This document shows, in pieces, positions 6,151 through 32,994 of a stretch of 52,634 nucleotides of DNA. The number at the start of each line of letters is the position of its first letter. Within the stretch, counting starts at the first letter, position 1. The notes beneath the pieces were generated by a model. That model worked only from the letters and a program-made list of their open reading frames with translations, did not search any database and was not told where the DNA came from. The position numbers and the translations under genes were made by a program. This DNA is from an uncultured Candidatus Berkelbacteria bacterium (GTDB taxonomy: Bacteria > Patescibacteriota > UBA1384 > CAILIB01): positions 1-52,634 of the forward strand of contig CAILIB010000033.1 in assembly GCA_903834195.1 (NCBI GenBank), given 5' to 3'.

Positions 6151-6840
6151 ATGAGTACTCAAACGCCAGTCTTGGCAACTGAACATTTGAAAAAGATCTA
6201 TGGGAAAGGTGAATCTATTTTTACTGCCCTGGAGTCTATTAATATTGAAATCAAAAAAGGCGAAAGCATCGCCATTTTAGGAAAAAGTGGGTCGGGAAAA
6301 TCGACGTTAATGCACATTTTGGCGCTTCTCGACACTCCAACCGAAGGTGTTGTATCGGTAGACGGTACTGATGCTTCTAAGTTATCGGTTAAAAAACTCG
6401 ACATATTGCGCAACAAGCAATTTGGCTTTGTCTTTCAACAGTTTTTCTTGAACGCTAATCAAACTGTTTTAGAGAATGTGATTTTACCGCTCAAAATTGC
6501 TGGAGTTTCAGCAAAAGAGCGTACAAAACGCGGTATGGAAGTGCTTAAATCAGTAGAACTTGAAGAAAAAGCTCAAAATAAGGCCAACGATTTATCAGGT
6601 GGACAAAAGCAGCGAGTTGTTATTGCTCGTGCGCTCGTAAATGAGCCACAAGTCATTTTTGCAGATGAACCTACAGGTAACCTAGATAGTGTTACCGGTG
6701 CTGCAATTCAAAAGATGTTATTCACACTGAACAAAGAGCGAGGCATTACACTAATTATTGTCACCCATGACCATGAATTGGCTGCAAAATGTGATCGACT
6801 CTTAGAAATTCATGACGGTACGTTAGTAAAAGGAGCGTAA
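6151..6840 (+). CDS. ABC transporter ATP-binding protein (MacB/LolD/FtsE-like)
   Basis: Walker [10 protein letters not shown], signature LSGGQKQR, Walker B IFADEPT, H-loop VTHD. Confidence 0.92.
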
Positions 6841-8145
6841 ATGAAATTAACCGACATCCTCAAAACTGCCAGCGAAAATATTTGGCAGAGTAAATTGCGC
6901 ACTTTTCTCACCATTATTGCCATTTTTATTGGTGCATTTACCCTAACACTCACAACTGGAATTGGTGCGGGAATTTCACAGTATATTGATGGACAAGTAA
7001 GTAGTATTGGTGCCAAGAATGTTCTGTTAATCTCCGGCAAAGCACAAAGCTCTACAACAACAGGAAATTCTACTGACCCACAAAAATACGACCCGAATAA
7101 ACTCACCTCTGCACAGCGACAAGGTCCTCCAGGGGATACGGTAGTGTTGTTAACCGATACTGATATTCAGAAATTAAAGTCTGTACCTGGTATTGTCGAT
7201 GTTCGTCCGCAGCAAAGTGTATCTCCGAGCTATATTCTTGGTCCAAGCGGACAAAAATATATTCTGTCGGTATCCGAATATATAGATGGAACAAATGTTG
7301 CGATGAATTCGGGAGTAATTCCTAGTAATACAGCAACGACGACACAAATTGCTGTGCCATATAACTATTCATCAGTGCTTGGTTTTGCAAGTTATGCTGA
7401 TGCTGTTGGAAAGACTGTAACCATAGGTATTTCTGACGCGAATGGCCTCATTTCAGAGGTTTCTGCAACAATCACAGGTGTGCCTCAGAAGAGTTTGATT
7501 GGGTCTGCGGGTGCAAGTATAAATACTGAACTGTTTAATAAGCTATATGCGATTCAAAGTGTCGGGTTAAGTGCTAATTCGCTGAATAAATTTAATGGAG
7601 CAATTGCCCACTTTGACGCAAGTTACACCGATGCTCAAATTACCGACCTAAAAAGTCGATTGGATAAAGATGGGTATACTGGTGAAACGTATGCTGATCG
7701 TATTGCAACAGTGAAGCAGGTGATTAGTGCCATTGTTATTGTATTCGATGCCTTCGCAGTAATTGCTCTTCTTGCTGCCAGCTTTGGAGTAATTAATACA
7801 TTACTCATGTCGGTACAGGAACGTACAAAAGAAATTGGCTTAATGAAGGCGATGGGAATGGGTCGTAGTCAGATCTTCTTCCTCTTTAGTTCAGAAGCTG
7901 TTCTGCTTGGGTTCTGGGGAAGTTTCCTTGGAGTTCTTGCAGCAATGGGTGTTGGTCAAATCATTAATCGGGTGGCGACACATGGATTTTTGAAGGATTT
8001 TGAAGGTCTCCACCTCCTCGCATTCCCAATTACCAATGTGCTCTATATTATTATTGGTATCATGTTTATCGCTTTCCTAGCCGGTACTTTGCCTGCACGA
8101 CGTGCTTCAGGACTTAATCCAATTGATGCACTGCGCTATGAATAG
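6841..8145 (+). CDS. ABC transporter permease, FtsX/MacB type
   Basis: 434 aa: N-terminal TM, about 260-aa extracytoplasmic domain, three C-terminal TM helices. Starts immediately after the ATPase stop (TAA-ATG). Confidence 0.85.
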   Translation: MKLTDILKTASENIWQSKLRTFLTIIAIFIGAFTLTLTTGIGAGISQYIDGQVSSIGAKNVLLISGKAQSSTTTGNSTDPQKYDPNKLTSAQRQGPPGDTVVLLTDTDIQKLKSVPGIVDVRPQQSVSPSYILGPSGQKYILSVSEYIDGTNVAMNSGVIPSNTATTTQIAVPYNYSSVLGFASYADAVGKTVTIGISDANGLISEVSATITGVPQKSLIGSAGASINTELFNKLYAIQSVGLSANSLNKFNGAIAHFDASYTDAQITDLKSRLDKDGYTGETYADRIATVKQVISAIVIVFDAFAVIALLAASFGVINTLLMSVQERTKEIGLMKAMGMGRSQIFFLFSSEAVLLGFWGSFLGVLAAMGVGQIINRVATHGFLKDFEGLHLLAFPITNVLYIIIGIMFIAFLAGTLPARRASGLNPIDALRYE

Positions 8146-8188
8146 GAGTTCTCAGCAAACTTTAAGCGTCGTTTTGTATAGTTAATGC

Positions 8189-9247
8189 ATGAAACGATAC
8201 ATAGTCACCGACGTTACATATACAACTCCTGATGTACTAACGCTCACCATGCGGGCAAAATCTGCTCGAGATGTGTTTGAGTACACACCAGGCCAATACG
8301 CAGCAATTGGTTTTCGCGTACATGGCAGGCCAACCCCAATGCGCTGTTTTTCTATCCTAAGTGCTCCACATAATCAGGGTGTACTTCAGTTTGGAATTCG
8401 TATTGGTGGCGATTACACACAGCGCTTAGCTCACCTTAAAGTTGGTGAAACAGTATCTGTGCGCGGTCCATTCGGCAACTTCGTTATTGATCCGCAGTAC
8501 GATCGAAGTGTAGTTATGCTTGCAGGTGGAATCGGCGTTACACCATTCCTTAGCATGATTCGCAGTGCAACTTCACGTGGATCTAAAATTCCTCTTACAC
8601 TTCTCTATAGTTGTCAAAATCAAGAGAATATCCCATTTCTTGGAGATCTTCTTGAACTAGAACGACAAAACCCAAATTTCAACCTCCAGATATTTATCAC
8701 TTCTGGAGATAGTACGCCAATGCCTGGTGTAAAGATTTCACGAGGACGTATTAATGGTGCCACGCTTGGTTCAATGGTTGGAAATCGTCTGAACGGGCAT
8801 ACATTCTTTGTTTGTGGACCTGGTGGTTTTATCACCGGAATGACTGATTTGCTTATTTCTAAAAGTGTCCGACCAGAGTGTATTGTGAGTGAAGCTTTTT
8901 CACAAAAGGTTGCAGATCAATCTTTGAATGGGTCACTTAGTTCTACCTCCAAAGTCTATTGGCTAAGTACTGCGGCTACAGTTGTGGGTATTACTGGAAT
9001 TATGATGCTCGATTTAATGCGTGCAGTTCCTAAGATTGCGAGTGCTCAGGCTGCACAAGTCTCACAGGATGTTTCTACTGCAGTTGTGGCTGCTACGCCT
9101 GACCCAACTCCTATTCCTACTGCTACACCATATACATCTAGTAATGCAGTTGTAAGCACTCCAGCTCCAACTCCAACCGCTACACCAATGGTGTATCAAG
9201 CACCTGTAGTACAAACGTATCGTCAGCCAATTACATCTGTTTCGTGA
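8189..9247 (+). CDS. FNR-family FAD/NAD(P)H oxidoreductase with C-terminal TM anchor and Pro/Thr-rich tail
   Basis: RCFSILS (RxYS-type FAD site), GGIGVTPF, CGPGGF. Followed by the hydrophobic helix WLSTAATVVGITGIMMLDL and a PT-rich tail (ATPDPTPIPTATP...TPAPTPTATP). Confidence 0.8.
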   Translation: MKRYIVTDVTYTTPDVLTLTMRAKSARDVFEYTPGQYAAIGFRVHGRPTPMRCFSILSAPHNQGVLQFGIRIGGDYTQRLAHLKVGETVSVRGPFGNFVIDPQYDRSVVMLAGGIGVTPFLSMIRSATSRGSKIPLTLLYSCQNQENIPFLGDLLELERQNPNFNLQIFITSGDSTPMPGVKISRGRINGATLGSMVGNRLNGHTFFVCGPGGFITGMTDLLISKSVRPECIVSEAFSQKVADQSLNGSLSSTSKVYWLSTAATVVGITGIMMLDLMRAVPKIASAQAAQVSQDVSTAVVAATPDPTPIPTATPYTSSNAVVSTPAPTPTATPMVYQAPVVQTYRQPITSVS

Positions 9248-10188
9248 AGACTCATGTTCAACAGTCCGGCTACGGGTTAGGCTCAGAAATTGTCCTCACA
9301 CTGGTTGGTACTGCTTCGCTCGACCTTGATATTTTATTGGCGCAGGTATGGCAAAAGATTCGGTTATTTGAAGAACGTTTTAGTCGATTTCAACCAACAA
9401 GTGAGCTATCTAAAGTTAATCAAATTGCAGGGCAGTGGGTTGAGGTAAGTTCTGAATTTCTTGAAGTCCTTACGCTAGCTATTTCATTTTCCAAATCTAC
9501 TGAAGGTCGGTTTAATCCGCTGATTTTACCGGCACTACAGCGTGCTGGATACGTAGGATCTTGGCCGAATCCAGTACAAAGTAATACTGATTTAGATTAT
9601 CGACAGCGTGAAATTCATGCAATCGATAGCATAAAAATTGAAGGCTCCCGAATTCAAATTCCAGAAGCAAGCGCACTTGATTTTGGTGGGTGTGGAAAAG
9701 GAATTTTACTCGATCAACTTGCTGATTTTCTCTCAGGTAAAACCAATAACTATTGGCTCTCACTTGGGGGAGATATTATTTGCTGTGGTGTTGATATGAA
9801 CGATCAGGAATGGTCTGTAGGAATTGCTCGCGTAGGTGTCCAAGGAATTATTGGTTCAGTGAAAAATGAAGGTGGTGAAAAGTGTGCAATTGCAACATCT
9901 GGAACTACAAAGCGACGTGGTACGCAAAATGACACTGAATGGCACCATATCATTAATCCGGTTACACATGCACCGGCGGAAACAGTAGTGTGCACTGCAA
10001 CTGTGTGTGCGCCAACCGCAGCAGCTGCGGACGTGTATGCGAAATGTATTGTTATATCTGGTTTAGAATACGAAAAAGAGATCTTCGAAAAAAAAGGTAT
10101 TACTGCTGCTGCGGTACAGTATGATGGTTTGGATGGAATAATAAGCGTATATTCACAAGGGTCACAAATAAAACTGCAAAATGAGTAG
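9244..10188 (+). CDS. apbE: ApbE-family FAD:protein FMN transferase, no N-terminal signal peptide or lipobox visible
   Basis: 314 aa. ApbE-like blocks (RFSRFQPTSELSKVN, FNPLILP, DFGGCGKGILLD, AIATSGTTKR). GTGA overlap with the upstream gene. Confidence 0.8.
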   Translation: MKTHVQQSGYGLGSEIVLTLVGTASLDLDILLAQVWQKIRLFEERFSRFQPTSELSKVNQIAGQWVEVSSEFLEVLTLAISFSKSTEGRFNPLILPALQRAGYVGSWPNPVQSNTDLDYRQREIHAIDSIKIEGSRIQIPEASALDFGGCGKGILLDQLADFLSGKTNNYWLSLGGDIICCGVDMNDQEWSVGIARVGVQGIIGSVKNEGGEKCAIATSGTTKRRGTQNDTEWHHIINPVTHAPAETVVCTATVCAPTAAAADVYAKCIVISGLEYEKEIFEKKGITAAAVQYDGLDGIISVYSQGSQIKLQNE

Positions 10189-10759
10189 TACAGATTCACT
10201 TTTCACGATCGCACTAACACGTATTGTTTATACATGTCCTTGGTATATTGTACGAGGAGCAGGATTTGTGGCAGTATTTTTAATTATTCTTTTAATGTTA
10301 TCCGGTATTGGGTTAGTAACTGGACATACATTTCGATGGTTTGAACCTACCAAAGCTTGGGCGATTCATCGTGCAATGGGTATTGCACTCTGTGTAAGCA
10401 TGGCGGTGCACATATTATTCTTACTTATTGATCATTCACTTTCCTTTAATTTTGCACAGCTGTTTATTCCATTTATTTCCTCGTATCAAACGCTCTGGGT
10501 TGGGCTTGGAGTCTTAGCAATGTACTGTGTCGTCATTGTAGTTGCGAGTTCGTTAGGGTGGATTGATTCCAAAAGAGGGTTGTGGAAGAAGTTACACTTT
10601 GTGAGTTATGCTTCTATGTTGCTCGTATTCTTTCATGCGTTAAACTCAGGCTCTGACTTAAAATACGGTGCATTTCGCTCATTGTGGATACTTTTAGGAG
10701 GCATTTTGTTATTAGCAGTGGTGGTCCGAGTATTTCGTTCTGGTACGCTCAAAAAATAG
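10181..10759 (+). CDS. Ferric-reductase-domain (NOX/MsrQ-type) di-haem membrane protein
   Basis: 192 aa, about 6 TM helices. His63/His77 are 14 residues apart and His139/His152 are 13 apart, on two helices, the spacing seen in NOX-family bis-haem domains. 8-nt overlap with apbE. Confidence 0.7.
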   Translation: MSSTDSLFTIALTRIVYTCPWYIVRGAGFVAVFLIILLMLSGIGLVTGHTFRWFEPTKAWAIHRAMGIALCVSMAVHILFLLIDHSLSFNFAQLFIPFISSYQTLWVGLGVLAMYCVVIVVASSLGWIDSKRGLWKKLHFVSYASMLLVFFHALNSGSDLKYGAFRSLWILLGGILLLAVVVRVFRSGTLKK

Positions 10760-10838
10760 TATTATTTACCAAGATTTCAGATTAGAAAGTTGCCTAAAAT
10801 CTTGCCTTTTTGCCCATTTTGCCTAATAATGTTTCTGT

Positions 10839-12083
10839 ATGAAAACAATTTCGCAACGAGGTAGAGCACTACGAAGGGGTGGATACTTATTTTTCGTGTC
10901 GCTGTTATGTTTAAACTTCGCGACGGCTCCGGCGTATGCTGTTTCAGTTACGGATCTTCAGAAACAGAAAGCGTTACTTGAGCAGCAAGCTGCTGCAGCT
11001 AAGGCTCAGGCAGATGCTAATGCTGCGCTTGCACTTCAAGCTGCTAATACAGTTCAGCATTTGAGTGCGCAGGTAAATCAGCTTAAAGATAGTATTAACT
11101 CAACCCAGGGAACAATTGCAGATACAGAAGCAAGCATTGCAACTGAAGACCAGCAACTAGCAGCTCTTGAATCGCAAATTGGTGTAGTACAGCGTCAAGA
11201 GAATGCGATGATTCGTGCATTGTACATGCTTGAAACGAGTCAAGATGGGTTAGAATATTTTTCGAATCAGTCAGTGAGTGAGCAGGGTCGGATTAAAGAG
11301 CAAACTCAATCGTTAGAGACGTATTTAGGTACAGTTTCAAAACAATTAGTAGCGGTTAAAGCTGTGGCTGAGAGTGATCGAAATGCACTTGTAGAAAAGG
11401 ATCAATATTTATCCACACTTAAGTCACAGCAAGAAGATCAGCGTTCAACCTTGGCAGATGCCAAGAGTACTCAACAGGCTGTTCAATCAAATGCAACGGC
11501 TGCGCAAGCAAAGTTATTACAACAGGCCACTGCTGCTAAAGCTCAGGCAGATGTAATTGCACAAAAAATTGATTTATTGTCAGCAACGAATAACTGGGGT
11601 GGTGATTTAGTCTCTCAGAATGATCCTAGTTGGTACTATTCACAGATTGGTGATTACACGCAGCTTGGGTACAGCGGTGCAACTATAAATAATGTCGGAT
11701 GTTTGATTACCTCAATCGCAATGGTAACAACGTTTTATGGTCATCGGTTTACTCCAGATGATATGGCGCGAAATGCAACATTTAATAGTTGGGGTGGGTA
11801 CTATTGGGGAACTCCGTCAAACCTTGGGGTTCGTTTACAGCCAAGTGGTAGAGTTAACTGGTCAGTAGTACAAAGTCAGCTTGATCAAGGTCATCCAGTT
11901 ATTGTAGGTATTTACATGGCAAAAATTGGTGTTGTAAACCGTGATGGGTCATCTCACTATATTGTTATTAAGGCGCACGTTGGCGATAAGTGGATTATTC
12001 AGGATCCAATTGGACCGATCTCGCGTGTTCGTAGTTACGCACTGAAAGACGTTATTTCAATGATTCTTACGAGCCCACAGTAG
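10839..12083 (+). CDS. Secreted coiled-coil + papain-fold cysteine peptidase (C39-like/CHAP-like), PcsB-like putative cell-wall hydrolase
   Basis: Signal peptide (LLCLNFATAPAYA-VS), about 230 aa of Ala/Gln-rich coiled coil, then a C-terminal domain with catalytic-type Cys (NNVGCLITSIAMV) and His (SSHYIVIKAH), IIQDP. Confidence 0.65.
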   Translation: MKTISQRGRALRRGGYLFFVSLLCLNFATAPAYAVSVTDLQKQKALLEQQAAAAKAQADANAALALQAANTVQHLSAQVNQLKDSINSTQGTIADTEASIATEDQQLAALESQIGVVQRQENAMIRALYMLETSQDGLEYFSNQSVSEQGRIKEQTQSLETYLGTVSKQLVAVKAVAESDRNALVEKDQYLSTLKSQQEDQRSTLADAKSTQQAVQSNATAAQAKLLQQATAAKAQADVIAQKIDLLSATNNWGGDLVSQNDPSWYYSQIGDYTQLGYSGATINNVGCLITSIAMVTTFYGHRFTPDDMARNATFNSWGGYYWGTPSNLGVRLQPSGRVNWSVVQSQLDQGHPVIVGIYMAKIGVVNRDGSSHYIVIKAHVGDKWIIQDPIGPISRVRSYALKDVISMILTSPQ

Positions 12084-12161: not shown

Positions 12162-13499
12162 ATGAGTGATGCTAGTATACATGCGGCACGGGTGTTGATG
12201 GGAGATAGTTTAGGCTTCCATATCATCTTTGTCCTTTTTGGTTTAACATTGCCAATTCTAGTGAGTTGGTTCGAGTGGATGGGAATACGACATAAAGATG
12301 GTCGGTTGATCGAAACTGCGCGGTTTTGGTCAAAAATAATGGCAATTTTGGTAATTACGGGAGTAATTTCTGGCACGATTATTGCGTTGCAAATGTCATT
12401 AGTATGGCCAGGTATTCTTAAATTTGGTGGTGATGTTATCGGTTTGCCATTTCTATTTGAAACGTACGCTTTCTTGATTGAAGCTACATTCTTAGCTCTG
12501 TACATGGCGACCTGGAAAAATGCGCGAGTAAGTCAAAAGCTGCACGGGTATATTGGCTTTTTTGTCATTTTTGGTAGTACACTGAGTGCCTTCGCAATTA
12601 CGAGTATTAACGCCTGGATGAACTTACCGGCAGGATTTGATTTTGTGGGTGGTAAGATTCAGAACATTGATGTGTGGAAGGCTATATTTTCCCGAACCTC
12701 AATCGTCGAGTTTATCCATTCGATGCCGGGTTACTACTTAGCAGGTACACTTATGATCGCGGGGTTGTACGCCTTCACGGTCTTGCGTTCACATGCTAAG
12801 AATCGTGAGTCATTTGACCACGAACGCCGCGTCATGGGTAAACTCCTCGGTTTTGTGGTATGTTGTTTTGTTTTATCGGGTATTACTGCAGATATATCAG
12901 GAAAGTATCTTGCTAAATATGAGCCTGAAAAGTTGGCGGCTATCGAACTTGTCTACGATACAACAACTAATGCACCACTCACCGTTGGTGGAGTACCAGG
13001 AGACAACAATACGATTGTAGGTCCACATCTTCAAATTCCAGATGCGCTAAGTATCTTGGCTGGAAACTCAGTCGATACCACAGTGCAAGGTCTGAACGAT
13101 TTTTCAGCCGATACTCGTCCACCACTGTATGTGCACACGATATTTGACGTGAAGATGACACTCATTACCATTCTTGGACTGCTTGCAGTGCTCTACATTG
13201 GATTGCATTTCCTAAAACCGGATTACTTAAAGAGTAGAGCTGCACTTTGGATTTTGGGTGTTGTAAGTGTGTTTGGGATTTGTATCGTTGAGTTGGGGTG
13301 GATGATGACTGAAATTGGTCGTCAACCCTGGGCTGTGCGTGATTATGTAACCACTGCTCAGGCTCTCACAACCACACATGATATTACAAGTTTTGGCTAC
13401 TTCTTCCCACTCGCATATCTAGTCTTATTTATAGTAACTATTCTAGCCGTTCGTAAAGTGATTCACAGTAACAAGACTTCTCAAGGAGGTGAATTATGA
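12162..13499 (+). CDS. cydA: Cytochrome bd-type quinol oxidase subunit I (short Q-loop)
   Basis: 445 aa. N-terminal His (LGFHIIFV), Q-loop motif KYEPEKLAAIE, GWMMTEIGRQPWAV signature. Confidence 0.9.
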   Translation: MSDASIHAARVLMGDSLGFHIIFVLFGLTLPILVSWFEWMGIRHKDGRLIETARFWSKIMAILVITGVISGTIIALQMSLVWPGILKFGGDVIGLPFLFETYAFLIEATFLALYMATWKNARVSQKLHGYIGFFVIFGSTLSAFAITSINAWMNLPAGFDFVGGKIQNIDVWKAIFSRTSIVEFIHSMPGYYLAGTLMIAGLYAFTVLRSHAKNRESFDHERRVMGKLLGFVVCCFVLSGITADISGKYLAKYEPEKLAAIELVYDTTTNAPLTVGGVPGDNNTIVGPHLQIPDALSILAGNSVDTTVQGLNDFSADTRPPLYVHTIFDVKMTLITILGLLAVLYIGLHFLKPDYLKSRAALWILGVVSVFGICIVELGWMMTEIGRQPWAVRDYVTTAQALTTTHDITSFGYFFPLAYLVLFIVTILAVRKVIHSNKTSQGGEL

Positions 13500-14014
13500 A
13501 AGTACTCACTTACATTCTCTTTTTACTACCGCTGGTATTATTTGTTGTCGGATTTCTTTACGAAACGTACTTGAGCTTTCGTCGTCTTGCAGACCCGAAG
13601 GCAGGTAAAACAGGATATGTTACGGCAACCTGGGAAATCACTCATACATTGCTCATAGCAGCAGTTGTGGTGCTTGTAATGATGTTTAGCCATTCTATTG
13701 ACGGTATTGCTGAAACAATCTTTACAAGTACATTTGTGGCAGCCGCAGCGCTTACGGTTCGATATGCAACATATACGTATATTTTCTACGTTCGGGAAAC
13801 TAAGAAGATTTCATGGGTAGATTGGACATTTGCCTTCAGTCATGTGGTTGCTGCAGTTGCATTAGTAGTTTCTGTAGTTCGTGTACTTTGGTTTCTCTAT
13901 CAGAATAATCCATCAGTAAATGATCAATTTTTGAGCTTATTCGTTCCAGGACTAATTGTAACAATTGTCATTTGTGCGGTTCCAATGGCATACTTATATA
14001 TGTTGCGTGACTAA
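13496..14014 (+). CDS. Atypical short (172 aa, about 5 TM) membrane subunit translationally coupled to cydA; possible half-length CydB relative
   Basis: ATGA overlap with the cydA stop. Hydrophobic throughout. The segment ATWEITHTLLI is reminiscent of the conserved WDGNxVWLI segment of CydB. Canonical CydB is about twice this size. Confidence 0.5.
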   Translation: MKVLTYILFLLPLVLFVVGFLYETYLSFRRLADPKAGKTGYVTATWEITHTLLIAAVVVLVMMFSHSIDGIAETIFTSTFVAAAALTVRYATYTYIFYVRETKKISWVDWTFAFSHVVAAVALVVSVVRVLWFLYQNNPSVNDQFLSLFVPGLIVTIVICAVPMAYLYMLRD

Positions 14015-14041: not shown

Positions 14042-15487
14042 ATGTCAAACGAGGGATTAATTCAGCACTATCACATTACAAGCTCTTCGCTTGAGAATAG
14101 GCATGTATTTATTGGGCTAGGTAAAGACGATATTCATGTTTTAAAGTCCCTACACGGCTGGGCTAAAAAGAATGCGCCAACTATAGCACGTGAGTTTTAT
14201 GATCATCAGTTCGACTTTACCCCAACTCGAAGTATTTTTGATGGGTACTCAGTAAGTCATAATCTCCCAATTGAAAAAGTGCGCGAACATCTTGAGGTGA
14301 CTCAGGCTAACTATTTTATTCAAATCTTTGAAGAAGCAGATAGTGGGGGAGGTTTTGGAACAGATTATTTTGAAAAACGTCTTCATGTTGGGAAAATTCA
14401 CAATCGAATTAACTTGCCGCCAAAGTGGTACTTAGGTTCGTATACGCTGTATCAAGACATAGCATTCCGACATCTCAGAATGCACCTTATTGGTCAGCCT
14501 GGAAAGTTACGTCGTGCTGAACGTGCTTTGTACACAGTGTTTAACCTTGATATTCAAGCCATTGTCGACGGTTTCACCTTAGATTTAATGGAGTCTACTG
14601 GATTAAATATTACTAATATCCAGGTTGCAGAATACGAAGATTTAACCGATCATATCGGCTTAATTCGAACGGCATTCTCAGAGGAAATTACTGCCATTGC
14701 TACGGCAATGGGAAATGGTGATTTATCGATGCAAATTGTCCCGCTATCGGAGCAAGATACAATTCGTACTGCGTTTCGTCACAATGTTGAGCAGTTGCGC
14801 ATGGTAATCACTCGTTTACAAGAAACGTCGAACAATTTGCTTTCAGCTTCTAGCTTAACTGAAATGGCAAGTAAGGCTGTCAGCGAGAGTATGGGGTCAG
14901 TTGAAAGTGGTAGTAAAAAGCAGCAGGAGATTAGTACCACAGCACAGTCAGCTATGACTGGAATTCTGTCACAAATGGATGAGACGTCTGCACATGTGCA
15001 GGAACTTGATGCTCAGAGTAAAGACATCGGTATGATTACCGAAACAATTACGAGCATTGCTTCTCAGACTAACCTACTCGCATTGAATGCAGCTATCGAG
15101 GCAGCTCGTGCAGGTGAGGCTGGTCGTGGGTTTGCAGTTGTGGCTGATGAAGTACGTCGATTAGCTGAGAGTTCGAAGAAGTCGACTGACACAATTACGA
15201 CAATTATTCAAAAAATGCAGAATGAAATTCTTGCAGTAGCAAAGACTATTACTGGAAGTGAAAATGTTAATCAAACTGAAGAAATTGCAGAAGATGGTAC
15301 ACAAGGATTGCAAGTTGCAGTACGAAGTTTGCAAGATCAGCTTACAAGTCTTGAGCAAGTAGCAAAAGAGAACCAGCAGTCGATTACTCAAACTATTGGT
15401 TCAATTCAGTCTTCAGAAGAGTCTGCGAGAAATCTTCAAACTTCTGCAAAAGCACTCGGCGAGTTGTCAGCAACCTTCCATCTTTAG
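14042..15487 (+). CDS. Globin-coupled sensor / soluble methyl-accepting chemotaxis protein (HemAT-like aerotaxis transducer)
   Basis: N-terminal protoglobin-type sensor domain ([22 protein letters not shown] with proximal-His context). C-terminal MCP signalling hairpin ([36 protein letters not shown]). No TM helix. Confidence 0.85.
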
Positions 15488-15951
15488 TCTTCGGAAGATA
15501 AGAGCCGGCGGTAGCCAATAAGGCAGCCGGCTATTATTATAAACGCAACAAGTGACAAGAGGGGAATGCTAATAAAGCCAAACCAAGTAATGTATGGTGT
15601 TGTGCAAGAATTAGGTCCAGAAAGTGCACACGTAGTAATAAAGCTTCCTGGGTGAAGTGTGCGGTACTGTGCCATGTAGTAAATAACTGTGTGGTATCCG
15701 GCAATTGCCATGCCAATACCAACGAGTGGTGATGCATAGCGTAGGAATGTGCGTTTATCGTTCGACAGGAATGCTATAGGCAGAATAATTGCTAACGGAT
15801 ACAGACAAATGCGTTGATACCAACAAAGTTCGCACGGATTGTACTGTGCGAACTCGCTGAAGTATAAACTAACGAGAAGTCCGATAATTGCTTGTATTGA
15901 TGCTACACCTAGAAATAACAGGCGTAGTAAAGACTTTCGTTGTTCGTTCAT
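15484..15951 (-). CDS. Disulfide bond formation protein, DsbB family (BdbC-like)
   Basis: 155 aa, 4 TM helices. [13 protein letters not shown] motif in the first loop and a second Cys pair (CALSGPNSC). Confidence 0.8.
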
Positions 15952-15961
15952 GTAGTGGTGA

Positions 15962-16507
15962 TTATACTCTGCGTAAGTGGATCCATCCTAGTGTGGATAC
16001 TACCAGAAGAATGGCTGCTCCGGCAAATGAAGCAAGTGCAACATACATGCCAATTTGGCCAAAGAGCCAGAATGAATAGCCATCACCGAGGAGTAATCCA
16101 CGAAGCGTTTCTCCCTGAAATAGTGTGGCTTTTTGGCTAGCTAAGGTAGTATTTGTTGGATCTACCATGGCGAGAGCGCTGACCTCTGAATATGTTTTTC
16201 CGCCAGCAATTTTTGTCAAATGGTGTCCGATATACTCATTTGCGTATGCTTTGGCTTTTACACCGCTATCAACTTGCTGGCCTCCGTACTGTTGAAGGGT
16301 TGGATATTCTTCTGCAGTAAATCCTGCGCTGCCTGCTTCAGGAAAGAATATTTTCTGTGAAACAAGTTCATCATGTACCGAATTTGTGGCAAACGTGTAG
16401 CCATACCAAGCGAGTGACCCAATAACTAAGAGTACAACTACAAGTATTCCACCAAGGGCAATGAATACTTTTTCAAATGTTTTATTCGGGTGATGTTTTT
16501 GCGCCAT
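15962..16507 (-). CDS. Membrane protein of unknown function (N- and C-terminal TM helices, extracytoplasmic middle domain)
   Basis: Start chosen at ATG 16507, preceded by AAAGGAGG. The longer ORF reaching 16585 lacks an RBS. Confidence 0.5.
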   Translation of the reverse strand: MAQKHHPNKTFEKVFIALGGILVVVLLVIGSLAWYGYTFATNSVHDELVSQKIFFPEAGSAGFTAEEYPTLQQYGGQQVDSGVKAKAYANEYIGHHLTKIAGGKTYSEVSALAMVDPTNTTLASQKATLFQGETLRGLLLGDGYSFWLFGQIGMYVALASFAGAAILLVVSTLGWIHLRRV

Positions 16508-16595
16508 GCGCCTCCTTTGAATACTTATTGTAATTAATATGATTATAATAGGTACATACAGGTAATACCGTGATGTAAGACACAATTTCAGTGAT

Positions 16596-17246
16596 ATGAC
16601 TCCAATAATAAAAGAACTGGTTACTACCTTTTTTGAGGCTTATCCACTCAAGACCTATAATCGTGATGAAATTATTGCTCGCCCAGGACAATCCTTACCT
16701 GGAATCATGTACGTAGAGGAGGGGCGTGCAATTCAGTACGATATTACAAATGATGGTCGTCAAATAGTGCTTAATAGTTTTCGTAAGCCTGCCTTTTTTT
16801 CGATGTCTAATGCTCTCCTAGATCTGCCGAATGCGTATTTCTTTGCTGCTGAGACAAAGTTGCGGGTACGTTGCGCGCCGTATGCTGACGTTTTGAGCTT
16901 CTTAGAAAAGCATCCAGAAGTGCAATTTGATCTTTTGAAACGCGTATTTCAAGGTACAGAAGGGATATTGCGCCGACTTTCATATGCTCTGGGTGGACGG
17001 GCATCGACAGCAATTCAGTTCGAGGTGCTCATAATGGCACGACGGTTTGGTACGAGTGATAAAAATGGTTGTTCAGTAGTTGTGACACATCAGCAATTGG
17101 CTGAGCGCACAGGGTTATCGCGCGAAACAGTAAGTCGTGAACTGGAGCTATTACAGCGACGAGGCTTGATTGAGTTGGGATACCGAAGCGTAGTGGTTCC
17201 GAATATTCAGCGGTTAGAGGAAACTCTTGATCTAGAGGTTAACTAA
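16596..17246 (+). CDS. Crp/Fnr-family transcriptional regulator (no N-terminal Cys cluster)
   Basis: cNMP-binding-like beta-barrel plus a C-terminal HTH (THQQLAERTGLSRETVSRELELLQRRGLI). Confidence 0.85.
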   Translation: MTPIIKELVTTFFEAYPLKTYNRDEIIARPGQSLPGIMYVEEGRAIQYDITNDGRQIVLNSFRKPAFFSMSNALLDLPNAYFFAAETKLRVRCAPYADVLSFLEKHPEVQFDLLKRVFQGTEGILRRLSYALGGRASTAIQFEVLIMARRFGTSDKNGCSVVVTHQQLAERTGLSRETVSRELELLQRRGLIELGYRSVVVPNIQRLEETLDLEVN

Positions 17247-18090: not shown

Positions 18091-18801
18091 ATGCGTAAAA
18101 TACATCGTCAAGAACCACACATTGCTTCGAATCGCTCAACACTTAATTGGCTTCGAGCGGCAGTTTTAGGGGCAAATGATGGTATTATTTCACTTTCAGG
18201 CTTGTTGGTTGGAGTTGCTGGTGCAACCGATTCTCGTTCAGCTCTAGTAACTGCAGGTGTGGCCGGGTTAATTGCTGGTGGTTTCTCAATGGCCGCTGGG
18301 GAATTTGTTTCGGTAAGTACTCAACGTGATAGTGAACAAGCGTTACTTGATAAAGAACGACAAGAACTTGAGGATGAGCCTGAGGCTGAATTGGCTGAAC
18401 TTATTAGTCTGTATATGCGTAAAGGTTTGAGTAAGCACACTGCTACAACGGTGGCGACTGAGCTTACAAATCGTGATGCCTATGCCGCGCACGTAGATGT
18501 AGAGTTGGGAATTGATCCGGCTGACCTGACAAATCCGTGGCAAGCAGCAATGGCTTCCGTGGTTGCGTTTCTTGCAGGTGCATTAATTCCGTTTGTTGCA
18601 ATTTTAGTTGTTCCTACAAATATGCGCATTGTGGGTACATTTGTGGCTGTAATTGCTGCATTATTATTTACTGGAGTTACTAGTGCAAAGCTTAGTGGAA
18701 CTGCTCCAATGCGGGCTTGTGTTCGTGTAGTTCTGGGTGGAATACTTGCAATGGTGGTGACATATGGGGTTGGAGTATTATTCCGTACGAGCGGAGTATA
18801 A
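18091..18801 (+). CDS. VIT1/CCC1-family iron/manganese transporter
   Basis: NWLRAAVLGANDGIISLSGLLVGVAGA signature, acidic cytoplasmic helix region (ELEDEPEAELAEL), 5 TM helices. Confidence 0.85.
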   Translation: MRKIHRQEPHIASNRSTLNWLRAAVLGANDGIISLSGLLVGVAGATDSRSALVTAGVAGLIAGGFSMAAGEFVSVSTQRDSEQALLDKERQELEDEPEAELAELISLYMRKGLSKHTATTVATELTNRDAYAAHVDVELGIDPADLTNPWQAAMASVVAFLAGALIPFVAILVVPTNMRIVGTFVAVIAALLFTGVTSAKLSGTAPMRACVRVVLGGILAMVVTYGVGVLFRTSGV

Positions 18802-29214: not shown

Positions 29215-32200
29215 TTACTTCTTGTGGTGAACTCGACGTTCATACCCGCGCTGGATACGTGCACTAGCGATTGTAAACCAACTATAGAGAATAGGGGTTG
29301 TGAACAGAGAGAGGATACCACTAACAAGTACACCTGCTAGTACAACCGTTGCCAAACTGCGCCAGAATGGACTTAGAATGATTAATGGCATTAGTCCGCC
29401 GAGCGCAGTAACCTTGGTCAGGAAGATAGGTCGGAAGCGAATTCCAGACGCTTCAGCGATGGCCTGCTTAAATGGCATTCCGTGCGCGCGTTTTTGATTT
29501 GCGAGGTCAATCAGGAATATTCCCACATTAACCGCGATTCCAGACAGGGTAATAATTCCTAGGATTTCAAGGAAGCCAAATTGTCCTCCTACCAATGAAA
29601 GGGCAGGGAATACACCGATGAATGAAAGTGGGATTGCGAACAGGATGATGAATGGGTAGGCGAAGGAGCGGAAGAAGAGTGCAAGTACTACATAGAGCAT
29701 GACACATGCAATACCAAGGGCGATAAAGAGCTTTTGGAAGGATTTTAAGAACTCATTTCCGGAGCCTCGATCATCAAGAGCGTCAGAACGTAGGCCATAC
29801 TCTTTTAGCTTGTCTGCTGTCCAGAAATCTTTGACGGCCTGTTGTGGTGCTGTTGCATCTTTAAGTGCATCCTTAACCTCAGCTGTTATTGTTACAAAGC
29901 GTTGACCGTTCAATCGATTAATCCCAGTGAACCCTTGAGTAAGGCTTACCGTAGCTATATCCTGGACGCGAATCAGCTGACCTTGAGCGGTTGCGCCAAC
30001 GATAGTTGAGTTAATACTAGCAACATCAGTTGGTTGAGCTGCGTTAATCATGTAGATCTCAACCGGACGGGAACTTCCAGCAACTGTCTGTTCGTACTTA
30101 GTAGTCAAATTTTCGCCAACAATTGCATTAAGTGTTTGTGCTACTGCAATAGCTGGTAACCCTGTGCTGGCAAGTTTATCACGATTAATGCTAACGGCGA
30201 TTTGAGGATTATTCTCGTTAGTAAATCCATCATTAACTCGTGTAATATTAGGGAATTTATTACTATCGCGGAGAATATCTCCTGTTGCAATTGCAGCTTT
30301 TCGAAGTGCATCAAGATCGTCGCCGTAGATATTTACCGCAATAGGAGCTGACTGTGGACCAGTAATATTTTGATCAATCGCAGTGACGAAAATACGTTGA
30401 GAAGGCTTTGTGAGTGCGTTCAAACTTCCAGAGTTCAAATCCTTTACAAGTTGAGTGCTATTCTCATCTCGATCAGCACGATCAAATAATTGAACAGTAA
30501 AACTTACTTCATTGTCACTTTGTAGTGAAACGAAGAAGTTTTTAGTATCCTTTCGGGCTGTAAGAATAGCTTCTGTTTGATTGATAATATCTTGCTTTTG
30601 CGTCTTAGCGAGGTTGGCAGGATACTCAACATTTACACCGTAAATTGTATTGTCATCTGTTGATGAAAATTGAACTGGAACAATTTTACCGCTTGCAAAG
30701 AGTGCACCCGATACACCAAGAGGAATGATGATTGCGAGGATTATGATTACAATCTGTGCCCACGTGCGATCGAGAATCTTTGTATTGGTACGCACAAACC
30801 ACTGGCTCACTTTCCATAAGTTTGCGATCTCTTCCTGGTTTGTATGCTTGCGAGATGGCTTGAGCATGATGCGCGCCAAGTAGGTCAAGAATACGAGTGG
30901 GACAAAGTAAGACGCAATCAGTGCAGGGATGACGGTAATAGGAATGAACTTGATGATTTGTCCGAAGATACCATCTACAACACCGAATGGGACAAAAACG
31001 AGAGTGTTACAGATCACTGCAATAAACGCACCAATTCCAATCGTATTCATTGCTGCAATAACTGCATTGCGGCCGCGTTTACCCATGTCTAATTCATGCT
31101 GTACAGCCTCCAAGAGTACAATGGCTGGGTCAACAATTAAGGCGAGTACAAGCACCATTGAGAACAGGGTCAGCGTATTCAGTGTGACACCCTGAACCTT
31201 AAGGGCAAAAAATGTAATGAGGAGAGAAAGTGGGATTGCAAGTACAGAAATAATTGCTGCACGCCAGCTTACGAAAAGAAGCATCGAAAGCATGATGAGC
31301 CAGATTGCTCCGAGTGCCCAACCAAGTTTTCCGAATGGACTTGTACCAATAGGACTCCCGATTGCTCCCTTTTCAATCTCACTAACTTGCTGACTGATAG
31401 AATCTGCAACATTATAGACAGTTTTCAATGTTGCACCCTTCATTTCAGGGGCTGATTGGATTTCAGCAATACGACTTGTGACGTCTTTGTTTGACTTTAC
31501 AACATCAGCTGTGTCGTTGTACGTGAGCTGATAAAACAGCGCAGGTGCAGTTTCGATACTTGAATCCTTACTCGTTCGCTCTGAATACGTGTCGAGTGCG
31601 TATTGGTTATCACTTACAAGTGTTGCAGTGGCAACTTGGCCCAATGTGACAGCACGAGGGGGAGTTACTGAAGAGTCGGCTCCAATAGCAAGGTTATTAA
31701 TTTCATCAATAGACGTGAAAGGTGCTGCGGTAACAACACTGGTTTGACGACCATCTAACGTAATTGTTCCAGCAGGAATAGTTACATTACTTGCTTGTAG
31801 TGCTTGTTGAAGCTGGAGTGGGGTAAGTTTGTACTGGGCAAGCTTAGCAGGGTTCCAGTTAATATTTACACGGTCTTTTACAGGTTGAATAAGTTCAATT
31901 TGCTTTACACCGACAACTGTATTGAGTCGTTCTTTTACATAATCACCCTGTGCACGTAAATCGGCAGGTGTAGAACCAGTGGCACCGGTAAGAGCATAGT
32001 AAGAAATACTACCACCGAAACTTGGAACGATTACATCAGGTCGATCGGCGTCTGAAGGTAAGATGACACTCTGAACTTTATTACGAACTTCCGACAAGCT
32101 CGTGTTAAAGTCACTTGTAGCATCAAAGCTAACTTGAATACTTCCAAAACTATTACTTGCTGTGGATTGTACGTTAGTAACACCTTTTATACCCTGTACG

Positions 32201-32460
32201 GCAACTTCAATAGGTTTGACAATTTTGTCTTCTACTTCAGTTGGACTTGCTCCGCGGTACAGATCGGTAACAACTGCAATATTGAGCTGTGGTGCTGGAA
32301 AACCTTCTGAGCGAAGCGTTGCTAGTGAAAAACCACCGCCTATTAGTACTGCTAGAAATAGTAAAATAACAACTTGAGTATTCTTAAAAAACCAATCTAC
32401 AAGCTTGGCGCTCCAAACAATTGGTGTAGTGCTGTGCTCAGGAATGTCCAGTCGATCCAT
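29215..32460 (-). CDS. RND-superfamily efflux transporter (AcrB/SwrC-like), no adjacent adaptor or outer-membrane genes
   Basis: 1081 aa, 12-TM organisation with two large extracytoplasmic loops. AcrB-type N-terminus (WFFKNTQVVILLFLAVLIGG). Confidence 0.9.
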   Translation of the reverse strand: MDRLDIPEHSTTPIVWSAKLVDWFFKNTQVVILLFLAVLIGGGFSLATLRSEGFPAPQLNIAVVTDLYRGASPTEVEDKIVKPIEVAVQGIKGVTNVQSTASNSFGSIQVSFDATSDFNTSLSEVRNKVQSVILPSDADRPDVIVPSFGGSISYYALTGATGSTPADLRAQGDYVKERLNTVVGVKQIELIQPVKDRVNINWNPAKLAQYKLTPLQLQQALQASNVTIPAGTITLDGRQTSVVTAAPFTSIDEINNLAIGADSSVTPPRAVTLGQVATATLVSDNQYALDTYSERTSKDSSIETAPALFYQLTYNDTADVVKSNKDVTSRIAEIQSAPEMKGATLKTVYNVADSISQQVSEIEKGAIGSPIGTSPFGKLGWALGAIWLIMLSMLLFVSWRAAIISVLAIPLSLLITFFALKVQGVTLNTLTLFSMVLVLALIVDPAIVLLEAVQHELDMGKRGRNAVIAAMNTIGIGAFIAVICNTLVFVPFGVVDGIFGQIIKFIPITVIPALIASYFVPLVFLTYLARIMLKPSRKHTNQEEIANLWKVSQWFVRTNTKILDRTWAQIVIIILAIIIPLGVSGALFASGKIVPVQFSSTDDNTIYGVNVEYPANLAKTQKQDIINQTEAILTARKDTKNFFVSLQSDNEVSFTVQLFDRADRDENSTQLVKDLNSGSLNALTKPSQRIFVTAIDQNITGPQSAPIAVNIYGDDLDALRKAAIATGDILRDSNKFPNITRVNDGFTNENNPQIAVSINRDKLASTGLPAIAVAQTLNAIVGENLTTKYEQTVAGSSRPVEIYMINAAQPTDVASINSTIVGATAQGQLIRVQDIATVSLTQGFTGINRLNGQRFVTITAEVKDALKDATAPQQAVKDFWTADKLKEYGLRSDALDDRGSGNEFLKSFQKLFIALGIACVMLYVVLALFFRSFAYPFIILFAIPLSFIGVFPALSLVGGQFGFLEILGIITLSGIAVNVGIFLIDLANQKRAHGMPFKQAIAEASGIRFRPIFLTKVTALGGLMPLIILSPFWRSLATVVLAGVLVSGILSLFTTPILYSWFTIASARIQRGYERRVHHKK

Positions 32461-32526: not shown

Positions 32527-32994
32527 TTATATATGTTGATGTGCTAATGAAGTGATGTGAGAAAAGTGAGCTTCTGACAGTGGTTGTATAGATAATCGCA
32601 TTCCTCGTTTAGCTACGAGAATTCCTTCTAAGGTACTATCTTGCTTTATTTCGTCTAAGGTAACCATTCGGGGGAACTTTTCAACAAATCCTATATCTAC
32701 GCATACCCATGTTGGATTGTCAGGAGATGACTTGGGATCAAAGTATTCACTTTTTGGATCAAATGCAGTTTGATCTGCATGTGGATTGGAGATTACATTT
32801 GCAATTCCGACAACACCAGGTGGGGTAGTGCTCGAATGATAATAGAGAGCAATGTCTCCAACTTTCATTGTATCCCGCATAAAATTTCGTGCTTGGTAAT
32901 TACGAACTCCTGTCCACGGTTCCCTAGTGTCTCTTGCAAGGTCGTCGATAGAGTATGCGTCTGGTTCGCTTTTTAAGAGCCAATAGTTGGGCAT
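32527..32994 (-). CDS. EVE (PUA-like) domain protein
   Basis: MPNYWLLKSEPDAYSIDDL...WTGVRNYQARNFMRD...GDIALYYHS is the EVE-domain signature. Confidence 0.85.
   Translation of the reverse strand: MPNYWLLKSEPDAYSIDDLARDTREPWTGVRNYQARNFMRDTMKVGDIALYYHSSTTPPGVVGIANVISNPHADQTAFDPKSEYFDPKSSPDNPTWVCVDIGFVEKFPRMVTLDEIKQDSTLEGILVAKRGMRLSIQPLSEAHFSHITSLAHQHI

Follow-up and report, generated by a model that had tools for sequence, protein, structure and literature searches.

A conserved operon of dehydrogenase, ApbE and ferric-reductase-domain genes

Contig CAILIB010000033.1 of an uncultured Candidatus Berkelbacteria bacterium (GenBank assembly GCA_903834195.1; GTDB lineage Patescibacteriota, UBA1384, CAILIB01), analysed over its 52,634 nucleotides (nt) and called the window here, carries three overlapping forward-strand genes (Table 1). 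They encode a dehydrogenase that ends in a transmembrane (TM) helix and a disordered tail (gene 1), an ApbE-family FAD:protein FMN transferase (gene 2) and a predicted di-haem ferric-reductase-domain (FRD) protein (gene 3). An interpretation made from the sequence alone (the sequence-only reading) had taken them for a split NOX/ferric-reductase-type electron-transfer module with an ApbE encoded between its halves, and had proposed profile searches and a comparison of gene order in related genomes as checks. All three open reading frames (ORFs), the GTGA overlap and the 8-nt overlap were recovered exactly where it had placed them, and the overlaps behind its suggestion of translational coupling are confirmed in the sequence.

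Homologues of genes 1, 2 and 3 come almost entirely from Saccharimonadia (TM7, candidate phyla radiation (CPR)). Among 56 loci taken from species-representative genomes, 41 are complete Saccharimonadia loci, and the comparison of gene order gave the same result in all 41: the order dehydrogenase-ApbE-FRD is kept, the gene 1 stop lies ≤15 nt from the gene 2 start, and genes 2 and 3 overlap or are separated by ≤26 nt. The remaining loci are cut contigs, save L001, in which the dehydrogenase stands directly 5' of the FRD gene without ApbE between them. Genes flanking the trio vary between related loci, and the three-gene operon is therefore self-contained. A frameshifted fusion of genes 1 and 2, in which the tail would be a linker carrying ApbE outside, was rejected: the junction changes frame among genomes (overlaps of 1, 4, 7 and 10 nt, as well as small gaps) and the stop after SVS is conserved. 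An Rfam scan of the whole window found no RNA family, and promoter and terminator scans were not above shuffled expectation. The sequence itself was found in lake-water DNA metagenomes only, and no RNA runs held it.

The dehydrogenase domain of gene 1 was identified by FAD_binding_6 (PF00970; E 1.3e-11, 45.1 bits) and NAD_binding_1 (PF00175; E 3.5e-13, 50.6 bits), both above threshold in the proposed profile searches against Pfam; the NOX-type families NAD_binding_6 and FAD_binding_8 also matched. Motifs of the FNR family are present, with R52-C-F54-S for FAD, G113-G-I-G116-x-x-P119 for NAD(P)H, the CG motif C209-G210 and the C-terminal aromatic F237 in SEAF, and so are the segments RCFSILS, GGIGVTPF and CGPGGF that the sequence-only reading had named. 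Gene 1 has 344 homologues at E ≤ 1e-10; R52, F54, G114-I-G116, P119, C209-G210, E235 and F237 do not vary across 60 of them. Among PDB sequences the closest are those of the NOX of Streptococcus pneumoniae (SpNOX), both its dehydrogenase (DH) domain (8qq5/8qq1) and the full-length protein (8qt6/8qq7), tied with flavohaemoprotein, and F237 probably corresponds to F397 of SpNOX, which stacks on FAD (PMC11031084). In the AlphaFold model the domain is followed by a floppy linker (residues 243-250), a confident 42-residue helix (252-293) and disorder (294-352), which agrees with the earlier description of a TM helix plus tail. The outer end of this helix bears an invariant D275 and a near-invariant P281 (60 homologues), and a hydrophobic 19-mer (Kyte-Doolittle 1.6-2.5) occurs in all 44 gene 1 homologues at the loci.

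Gene 2 matched ApbE (PF02424) as proposed, with E 7.8e-48 and 163.7 bits, and aligns to Vibrio cholerae ApbE (6nxi) and its H257G mutant (6nxj). The catalytic triad, defined in V. cholerae as Ser241/His257/Asp285 (PMC12052999), is ≥90% conserved among 53 ApbE homologues, and the enzyme looks active from its sequence. The profile starts at residue 14 and the first beta-strand at about residue 10, with no in-frame start upstream. All 53 ApbEs beside this FRD family, outgroups included, likewise begin within ~10 residues of the first beta-strand and none has room for a signal peptide; on this criterion of N-terminal length and sequence, ApbE is leaderless in every homologue and therefore predicted to be cytoplasmic. 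Cytosolic ApbEs are a known minority and have cytosolic substrates (PMC12052999). The best 120 ApbE database matches are 284-329 residues long and all single-domain, so that none of them offered a natural ApbE fusion as a topology marker.

Gene 3 matched Ferric_reduct (PF01794) over profile positions 1-120 of 121 with E 1.6e-5, and a precomputed PF01794 match exists for ~90 of 107 gene 3 homologue clusters. As the sequence-only reading had noted, His63 and His77 are 14 residues apart and His139 and His152 are 13 apart; all four are invariant in 100/100 homologues, and also in distant FRDs of Actinobacteria, Chloroflexi and a spirochaete. The two pairs are placed like the ligands of both b-haem sites of NOX enzymes. 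The AlphaFold model (pLDDT 92.8, pTM 0.86) has helices at 7-47, 56-83, 104-130, 132-156 and 164-191 and places the two His pairs on the non-adjacent TM helices 56-83 and 132-156. Searched with Foldseek against the PDB, it retrieved SpNOX as the top three matches (8qta, 8qt6 and 8qq7; probability 0.97-1.0, TM-score 0.50-0.53 on the query, ~190 aligned columns), followed by STEAP2, NOX2 and DUOX1. The fold search alone matched; a profile of the FRD found nothing among PDB sequences at E ≤ 1. Neither half is fused to the other in any of 120 gene 1 homologues listed or 107 FRD homologues. Because both halves match SpNOX best, the dehydrogenase by sequence and the FRD by fold, the split NOX/ferric-reductase-type reading is supported. 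Against it stand the score of gene 3, 25.4 bits, which leaves a full-profile match below the Ferric_reduct gathering score of 28, and the weak Foldseek E-values (0.1-4), as usual for small helical bundles. On balance, genes 1-3 very probably encode a transmembrane NAD(P)H:haem module that is split and NOX/MsrQ-like, and an ApbE associated with it.

Where the sequence-only reading had counted roughly six TM helices in gene 3, there are five clear ones and an N-terminal amphipathic extension. The match to Ferric_reduct starts at FRD residue 27, in the position of NOX TM2. Ahead of a conserved W-Y-x-x-R-x-A-G there are 14-31 residues, without hydrophobic character in 78 of 79 Saccharimonadia homologues, and the actinobacterial FRD type has just 6-8 residues there. 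By the positive-inside rule the FRD C-terminus and loops 47-56 and 127-135 are cytoplasmic, as in NOX, and the helix of gene 1 and of the tail proteins described below runs in-to-out, like NOX TM1. The gene 1 helix may thus complete the FRD fold in trans as NOX TM1, making the pair a circularly permuted split NOX (DH-TM1 on one protein, TM2-TM6 on the other). An Anaerolineae locus (L056) fits this idea as a counter-case: its FRD (7761-8531) has an extra N-terminal TM helix of its own, with no tail protein upstream of the leaderless ApbE, and its first external loop reads W-A-T-A-G-I-S-P, resembling the tail C-terminal motif placed internally. L056 is the only informative case for an anti-correlation between TM1 in cis and a tail protein, the others being on cut contigs. 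That TM1 in trans draws on topology logic and this single locus is a point against it.

Table 1 Features of the three-gene operon (positions in the window)
Feature	Position	Strand	Basis
Gene 1, FNR/NOX-type dehydrogenase with TM helix and tail, 352 aa	8189-9247	+	ORF, Pfam
Cytoplasmic dehydrogenase domain, residues 1-238	8189-8902	+	AlphaFold pLDDT >92 throughout
Long helix, residues 252-293	8942-9067	+	DSSP on AlphaFold model, pLDDT 76-96
Hydrophobic TM core of the helix, ~residues 256-277	8954-9019	+	Sequence hydrophobicity
Disordered Pro/Thr/Ala/Ser low-complexity linker, residues 294-343, predicted extracytoplasmic	9068-9217	+	pLDDT 43-59
C-terminal peptide Y-R-Q-P-I-T349-S-V-S352-COOH, candidate ApbE flavinylation site (Thr349 or Ser352)	9218-9244	+	Conservation
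GTGA overlap, gene 1 stop and gene 2 start	9244-9247	+	Sequence
Gene 2, leaderless ApbE-family FAD:protein FMN transferase, 314 aa, GTG start	9244-10188	+	ORF, Pfam
ApbE catalytic Ser219	9898-9900	+	Alignment to V. cholerae Ser241
ApbE catalytic His235	9946-9948	+	Alignment to V. cholerae His257
ApbE catalytic Asp263	10030-10032	+	Alignment to V. cholerae Asp285
8-nt overlap, gene 3 start within gene 2 end	10181-10188	+	Sequence
Gene 3, 5-TM FRD di-haem protein (predicted), 192 aa	10181-10759	+	ORF, Pfam, AlphaFold
Candidate haem ligand H63	10367-10369	+	Conservation
Candidate haem ligand H77	10409-10411	+	Conservation
Candidate haem ligand H139	10595-10597	+	Conservation
Candidate haem ligand H152	10634-10636	+	Conservation

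A conserved C-terminal peptide and its counterparts in other phyla

Past its TM helix gene 1 has a disordered tail of 75 residues, a plan shared by all 44 homologues at the loci. Their tails are 56-141 aa long, consist of 63-88% S/T/P/N/Q/A/G and are unconserved in sequence, and despite this variability the last ~9 residues are strikingly conserved in 44/44. The Pro/Thr-rich tail reported in the sequence-only reading is therefore present, although it was treated there as an oddity and the conserved peptide at its end was overlooked. Two clades differ in this peptide: clade 1 ends in Y-[QRK]-x-P-[VIM]-[TS]-S-V-S-COOH, gene 1 of the window having YRQPITSVS, and clade 2 ends in C-T-T-x-Q-S-G-V-T-T-C-x-COOH. 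A C-terminal Ser is found in 96 of 118 full-length homologue clusters, and [ST]x[VAT]S stands at the end in 85 of the 118; clusters without a terminal Ser almost all have the Cys-bracketed SG loop (SGV[T]). In a set of 25 genes of clade 1, all four synonymous codons are in use for the conserved Pro, Val, Thr and Ser, which indicates that the peptide is under selection, not a ribosome-binding site of the downstream ApbE gene. Conservation as an RNA or ribosome-binding signal was rejected on this codon diversity and because the motif is kept where no ApbE follows.

The tail is predicted to lie outside the cell, since the dehydrogenase is not exportable and gene 1 has only one helix, since the composition of the linker is typical of monoderm surface proteins, since the Cys-bracketed loop of clade 2 suggests a disulfide, and since stand-alone tail proteins have basic N-termini. 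Its conserved end resembles the [ST]-G-A-[ST] core of known flavinylation sites, which makes it the best candidate substrate of the ApbE. The canonical ApbE motif is D-x-x-[ST]-G-A-[ST], whose 7 residues suffice and work best at termini; its Asp is nearly dispensable, G->A and A->V each keep ~50% flavinylation, and Ser can serve as acceptor (PMC12052999). In the cytoplasm of Escherichia coli, the C-terminal 12-mer GVDGLSGATLTS is fully flavinylated by an ApbE truncated so as to have no leader (PMC9400968), and in FMN_red proteins associated with ApbE, unstructured extensions at the C-terminus bear sequences that resemble the motif (PMC11334425). Counted from the C-terminus, a single register accommodates this tag (S-G-A-T/L-T-S), clade 2 (S-G-V-T/T-C-V) and clade 1 (Q-P-[VI]-T/S-V-S), in which case the acceptor could be the Thr or Ser at position -3, Thr349 in the window. 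A variant ending in R-G-G-A-S-COOH (L038) argues for the terminal Ser, Ser352 here.

The operon has no conserved canonical ApbE motif, and the degenerate [ST]-x-[VAT]-S or S-G-V-T at the C-terminus is the only conserved form. Matches to [ST]GA[ST] in a six-frame translation of the window are chance only, for example SGAT beside the catalytic Cys of a C39-like peptidase at 11673. Two cytoplasmic sites were considered and discarded: GRINGATLG (NGAT) in the dehydrogenase, where G is conserved in 5%, A in 9% and T in 2% of homologues, and SGIGxVTG (T47) in the FRD, which is confined to Saccharimonadia and absent from outgroups and is more likely a docking loop for the dehydrogenase. A literature search returned nothing on Saccharibacteria with ApbE, or on flavinylation of disordered tails.

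Similar C-terminal peptides occur beyond Saccharimonadia, without the dehydrogenase. In outgroup genomes and 75 metagenomic loci, ApbE lies directly 5' of an FRD gene in ~45 cases, none of them with a dehydrogenase. The gene directly 5' of ApbE, with a stop that touches the ApbE start, encodes a small single-pass membrane protein (20-21 of 22 assessable outgroup loci), and trios with such a small tail protein were seen in Actinobacteria, Chloroflexi and a spirochaete. These proteins are basic on the N-side and are therefore predicted to be N-in/C-out; they have a variable tail and a conserved C-terminus of the [ST]x[VAT]S type, and they matched no family in Pfam or NCBIfam. Their C-termini fall into type A (L-P-P-L-[VT]-x-T-[KR]-[TV]-S-COOH), type B (Q-x-Q-[ST]-[SH]-[VA]-S-COOH, closely resembling clade 1 of Saccharimonadia) and type C (H-A-T-T-x-T-S followed by 4-6 residues). 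At loci without ApbE the tail protein stands directly 5' of the FRD gene and retains the motif, and one locus has a single ApbE for two tail-FRD pairs. Because the trio recurs across phyla, the conserved unit is the tail protein, usually ApbE, and the FRD protein. In these sequence comparisons the tail module is fused to the C-terminus of an NAD(P)H dehydrogenase in Saccharimonadia only, and the trio itself is older and wider; a plausible reason for the fusion is that Saccharimonadia are without a quinone pool to feed the FRD.

Some outgroup clusters are more elaborate. Gaiellales-like actinobacterial loci (L053 and L054, at ~6300-10860, L059 and L065) hold two tandem tail-ApbE-FRD sets that differ in tail type (ITKTS versus HATTQTSPPPP at the end), and they encode further small single-pass proteins with the acidic ends GGGGDD, WEDD and GQDD. 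A histidine kinase adjoins the Gaiellales-like cluster and OmpR-type two-component systems flank the clusters of a spirochaete (L051) and of L056, which suggests regulated expression of the outgroup clusters.

Possible electron routes and related systems

We propose that electrons would pass from NAD(P)H to FAD in the dehydrogenase and on through the inner to the outer haem of the FRD protein, with the gene 1 helix possibly standing in for the missing NOX TM1. ApbE would esterify FMN, derived from FAD, onto Thr349 or Ser352 of the tail peptide, probably in the cytoplasm and before the unfolded tail is translocated. The tail FMN would then take electrons from the outer haem and hand them to an external acceptor, for which Fe(III) would be the leading candidate and O2 or other oxidants the alternatives. 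Ferric reduction is the first guess because a VIT1 gene lies nearby and a VIT1 link of MsrQ-like clusters has been published; O2 reduction as in SpNOX would be equally possible chemically. The sequence-only reading had placed a separate extracytoplasmic flavoprotein at the end of the chain, but none is encoded among the window genes scanned, and no FMN_bind (PF04205) protein was found among the 39 window proteins examined. Since ApbE should be inside the cell and the tail outside, the complete chain from NAD(P)H through FAD and two haems to FMN esterified at the tail end is a tentative proposal to which we give slightly less than an even chance.

Several observations weigh against this chain. 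Above all there is a conflict of topology: ApbE is without an export signal in all 53 homologues, yet the tail is predicted outside. The tail might be modified before it is exported, ApbE might leave the cytoplasm by an unrecognised route, or the tail might not be the substrate; our literature search found no precedent for flavinylation before export. Flavinylation of the tail is something that we infer, and the peptide departs from the canonical motif in having no Asp and, in clade 1, Pro, Ser and Val in place of Gly and Ala. Canonical ApbE substrates may exist elsewhere in the genome, the substrate search having covered genes of the window, and VIT1 is near the operon in only a minority of loci.

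The sequence-only reading had expected the class of the operon to be known already, and the closest one was described by Meheust et al. 2021 (eLife, PMC8238504; see also Huang et al. 2024, mSystems, PMC11334425) as MsrQ-like flavinylation-associated systems. In both, a PF01794 di-haem membrane protein is encoded in a cluster with apbE, the cytosolic donor is an FNR-type module that binds NAD(P)H, the proposed chain leads from NAD(P)H via haems to covalent extracytosolic FMN, and VIT1 is an occasional associate, which suggests iron reduction. The survey looked for a PF01794 gene within five genes of apbE; here the two are adjacent and overlapping, and none of the other three families in its definition occurs in the window genes scanned. 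The cluster fails to fit the MsrQ-like class in three features. By definition at least one component of those systems has a signal peptide or lipobox, whereas the ApbE here is leaderless; their acceptor is FMN_bind, whereas here none was found among the window proteins scanned and the candidate is a short peptide on a disordered tail; and their NAD-binding domain is usually on the C-terminus of the MsrQ-like protein, whereas here the dehydrogenase is separate and has its own helix. Clusters without a signal peptide or lipobox were discarded in that survey, which also reported that CPR are strikingly under-represented and that VIT1 is tied to MsrQ-like clusters (PMC8238504). Since this ApbE is leaderless, the survey would have excluded the present cluster.

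SpNOX (8qq7, 8qt6; PMC11031084, PMC11564096) is the best solved match for the dehydrogenase in sequence and for the FRD protein in fold, and the likeness extends to two His pairs on non-adjacent helices, a C-terminal aromatic residue stacking on FAD, small extracellular loops and an exposed distal haem. The spacing of the first His pair is 14 here, as in NOX2, and 13 in SpNOX. Unlike the operon, SpNOX has no ApbE and no covalent flavin, and it is one polypeptide with TM1-6 followed by the DH domain, whereas here DH-helix, ApbE and TM2-6 are on separate proteins and an external tail is added. The single-chain definition of bacterial NOX (SpNOX/CsNOX5 type) therefore does not describe the operon, whose proteins are separate and whose gene order is reversed. 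Escherichia coli MsrQ (YedZ), which receives electrons from Fre or quinol and passes them to MsrP, is likewise a small stand-alone FRD protein fed by a separate flavin reductase. It has six helices, against five in the FRD protein here. Fre is soluble and not co-encoded, whereas this dehydrogenase is membrane-anchored and translationally coupled, and no MsrP partner was found beside the operon. The earlier statement that neither the fused NOX nor the MsrQ/Fre paradigm fits is borne out by these differences.

Flavinylated carriers of other kinds offer partial parallels. In the monoderm Listeria monocytogenes, the ApbE-family enzyme FmnB attaches FMN covalently to a surface-exposed carrier, PplA, from which electrons go to acceptors outside the cell, Fe(III) among them (PMC9973259). 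Unlike the leaderless ApbE here, FmnB is located outside the cytosol and depends on an ECF transporter to export FAD; PplA has folded FMN_bind domains, and its electrons come via Ndh2 and quinone, not from a di-haem FRD protein. The operon as proposed would resemble cytosolic ApbE systems and the engineered Flavin-tag (PMC12052999, PMC9400968), in which a leaderless ApbE works in the cytoplasm, a short terminal peptide suffices, Ser is accepted as acceptor and Val is tolerated just before it. The known natural cytosolic substrate, Klebsiella fumarate reductase, is folded and has a canonical motif, however, and the Flavin-tag is artificial; neither system exports the modified peptide.

Three other explanations were weighed. 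The tail may carry no flavin at all, in a split NOX/MsrQ-like chain whose outer haem reduces O2 (to superoxide, as in SpNOX) or Fe(III) directly; the helix would then anchor the dehydrogenase or complete the fold, the tail would be a cell-wall spacer whose end docks on the FRD protein or an envelope component, and ApbE would serve another substrate, or would work in the cytoplasm by cleaving FAD as a pyrophosphatase or by handling flavins. Hydrolysis of FAD is a further activity of some members of the ApbE family, for example Ftp of T. pallidum. Both halves resemble SpNOX, which needs no extra flavin and exposes its distal haem; a leaderless ApbE should not reach an external tail, the C-terminal motif is non-canonical, and some loci, such as L001, have no ApbE between tail protein and FRD. 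What this explanation leaves unaccounted for is that ApbE is wedged between tail protein and FRD with overlapping stop and start across four phyla, that besides the helix only the Ser/Thr C-terminus, with its likeness to the ApbE motif, is common to all tail proteins, and that the outgroup clusters hold no dehydrogenase for ApbE to service. We consider it unlikely. Distinctly less likely is a leaderless ApbE that modifies a cytoplasm-facing site or an unlinked cytoplasmic protein, the FMN being on the inner side, for example at the electron entry to the FRD where a dehydrogenase is absent. The ApbE is leaderless, cytosolic pairs of ApbE and substrate are known, such as Klebsiella ApbE with fumarate reductase (PMC12052999), and the outgroup clusters are without an identified cytoplasmic donor for the FRD; but no conserved motif-like Ser/Thr was found on the cytoplasmic side, where NGAT of the dehydrogenase and SGIGxVTG of the FRD protein both fail, tail proteins of different types have nothing in common in their N-terminal cytoplasmic stubs, and the Saccharimonadia dehydrogenase already has its own FAD site beside the FRD.

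A repair system of the MsrPQ type, in which the FRD protein is an MsrQ that feeds the periplasmic molybdoenzyme MsrP and the FNR protein plays the part of Fre, is very improbable. Fre can reduce E. coli MsrQ, source databases label several FRD homologues 'YedZ/MsrQ', and the FRD protein is small and without a fused dehydrogenase, like MsrQ. However, neither the surroundings of the operon in the window nor the conserved neighbours at 41 related loci yielded an MsrP-type gene; MsrPQ includes no ApbE and no tail module, and the dehydrogenase is membrane-anchored and most similar to the DH domain of SpNOX.

The preferred reading, in which the tail end is flavinylated, can be carried further. The operon may encode a novel redox carrier: a disordered, membrane-anchored polypeptide with one FMN on a Ser or Thr at its extreme C-terminus, installed by a cytoplasmic ApbE before export. 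It would act as a swinging-arm or 'fishing-line' shuttle, reduced at the outer haem of a 5-TM FRD protein whose missing first helix is the anchor of the tether, and would take electrons through the cell wall; the module is present in four phyla or more. Its fusion to the dehydrogenase in Saccharimonadia would make a split, circularly permuted NOX and would let quinone-poor CPR bacteria perform extracellular electron transfer. As a whole this extended proposal is rather doubtful.

Neighbouring genes and implications

A VIT1-family iron transporter (PF01988, E 8e-66) is encoded at 18091-18801 (+), 7.3 kb downstream of the FRD gene, and VIT1 homologues lie ≤8 kb from the operon in L004, L019, L034 and L050. 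Closer to the operon is a cytochrome bd-type oxidase subunit I (445 aa; PF01654, E 3e-103; within 12162-14014, +), followed with a 4-nt overlap by a subunit-II-like protein of 172 aa that matches half of PF02322 below threshold (E 2.6e-4). A haem-copper-free terminal oxidase with a truncated CydB is unusual in a CPR genome, and the presence of both this oxidase and the FRD protein implies that the organism acquires or makes haem. An oxygen/redox-sensing cluster at 14042-17246 adjoins the oxidase and comprises a protoglobin-MCP fusion (a globin-coupled sensor; 14042-15487), DsbB (15484-15951, -) and a Crp/Fnr-family regulator (16596-17246); a Crp-family gene is found ≤8 kb from the operon in 5 other Saccharimonadia loci.

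Directly 3' of the operon, a gene at 10839-12083 (+) encodes a protein that begins with a signal-anchor-like segment, continues as a long Gln/Ala-rich coiled coil and ends in a Peptidase_C39_2 domain; this is the protein with the chance SGAT by its catalytic Cys, and it is not conserved beside the operon in other loci. Upstream, a MacB-like ABC/FtsX pair (6151-8145) lies between the operon and a homologue of 2-phosphosulfolactate phosphatase (ComB-type, PF04029; 5449-6120, +), a coenzyme-M-pathway-type enzyme unexpected in this lineage. Further away, an AcrB/RND-family transporter of 1081 aa (29215-32460, -; PF00873, E 4e-135), encoded in a presumably monoderm CPR bacterium, is adjoined by an EVE-domain protein (32527-32994).

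Everything past the domain identities and the comparative genomics is what we infer, and the implications are conditional to the same degree. An arrangement whose likely target of flavinylation is a conserved peptide ending a floppy dehydrogenase tail is not yet described, and should the tail indeed be flavinylated, it would be a redox carrier of a new kind. The range of ApbE substrates would then reach beyond folded domains and take in a bare peptide at the end of a disordered tether, the natural analogue of the Flavin-tag, and flavinylation in the cytoplasm followed by export would spare the cell the export of FAD. The split, permuted NOX would offer a natural system for studying how dehydrogenase and haem domain dock. 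If the proposed chain is correct, CPR bacteria, which have been reported as nearly devoid of extracytosolic flavinylation, would have widespread NAD(P)H-driven electron export by a route missed in surveys that require a signal peptide on ApbE or FMN_bind. In epibiotic Saccharibacteria, the function of the chain could matter for how iron is acquired, how oxygen is handled or how the cells interact with their host.

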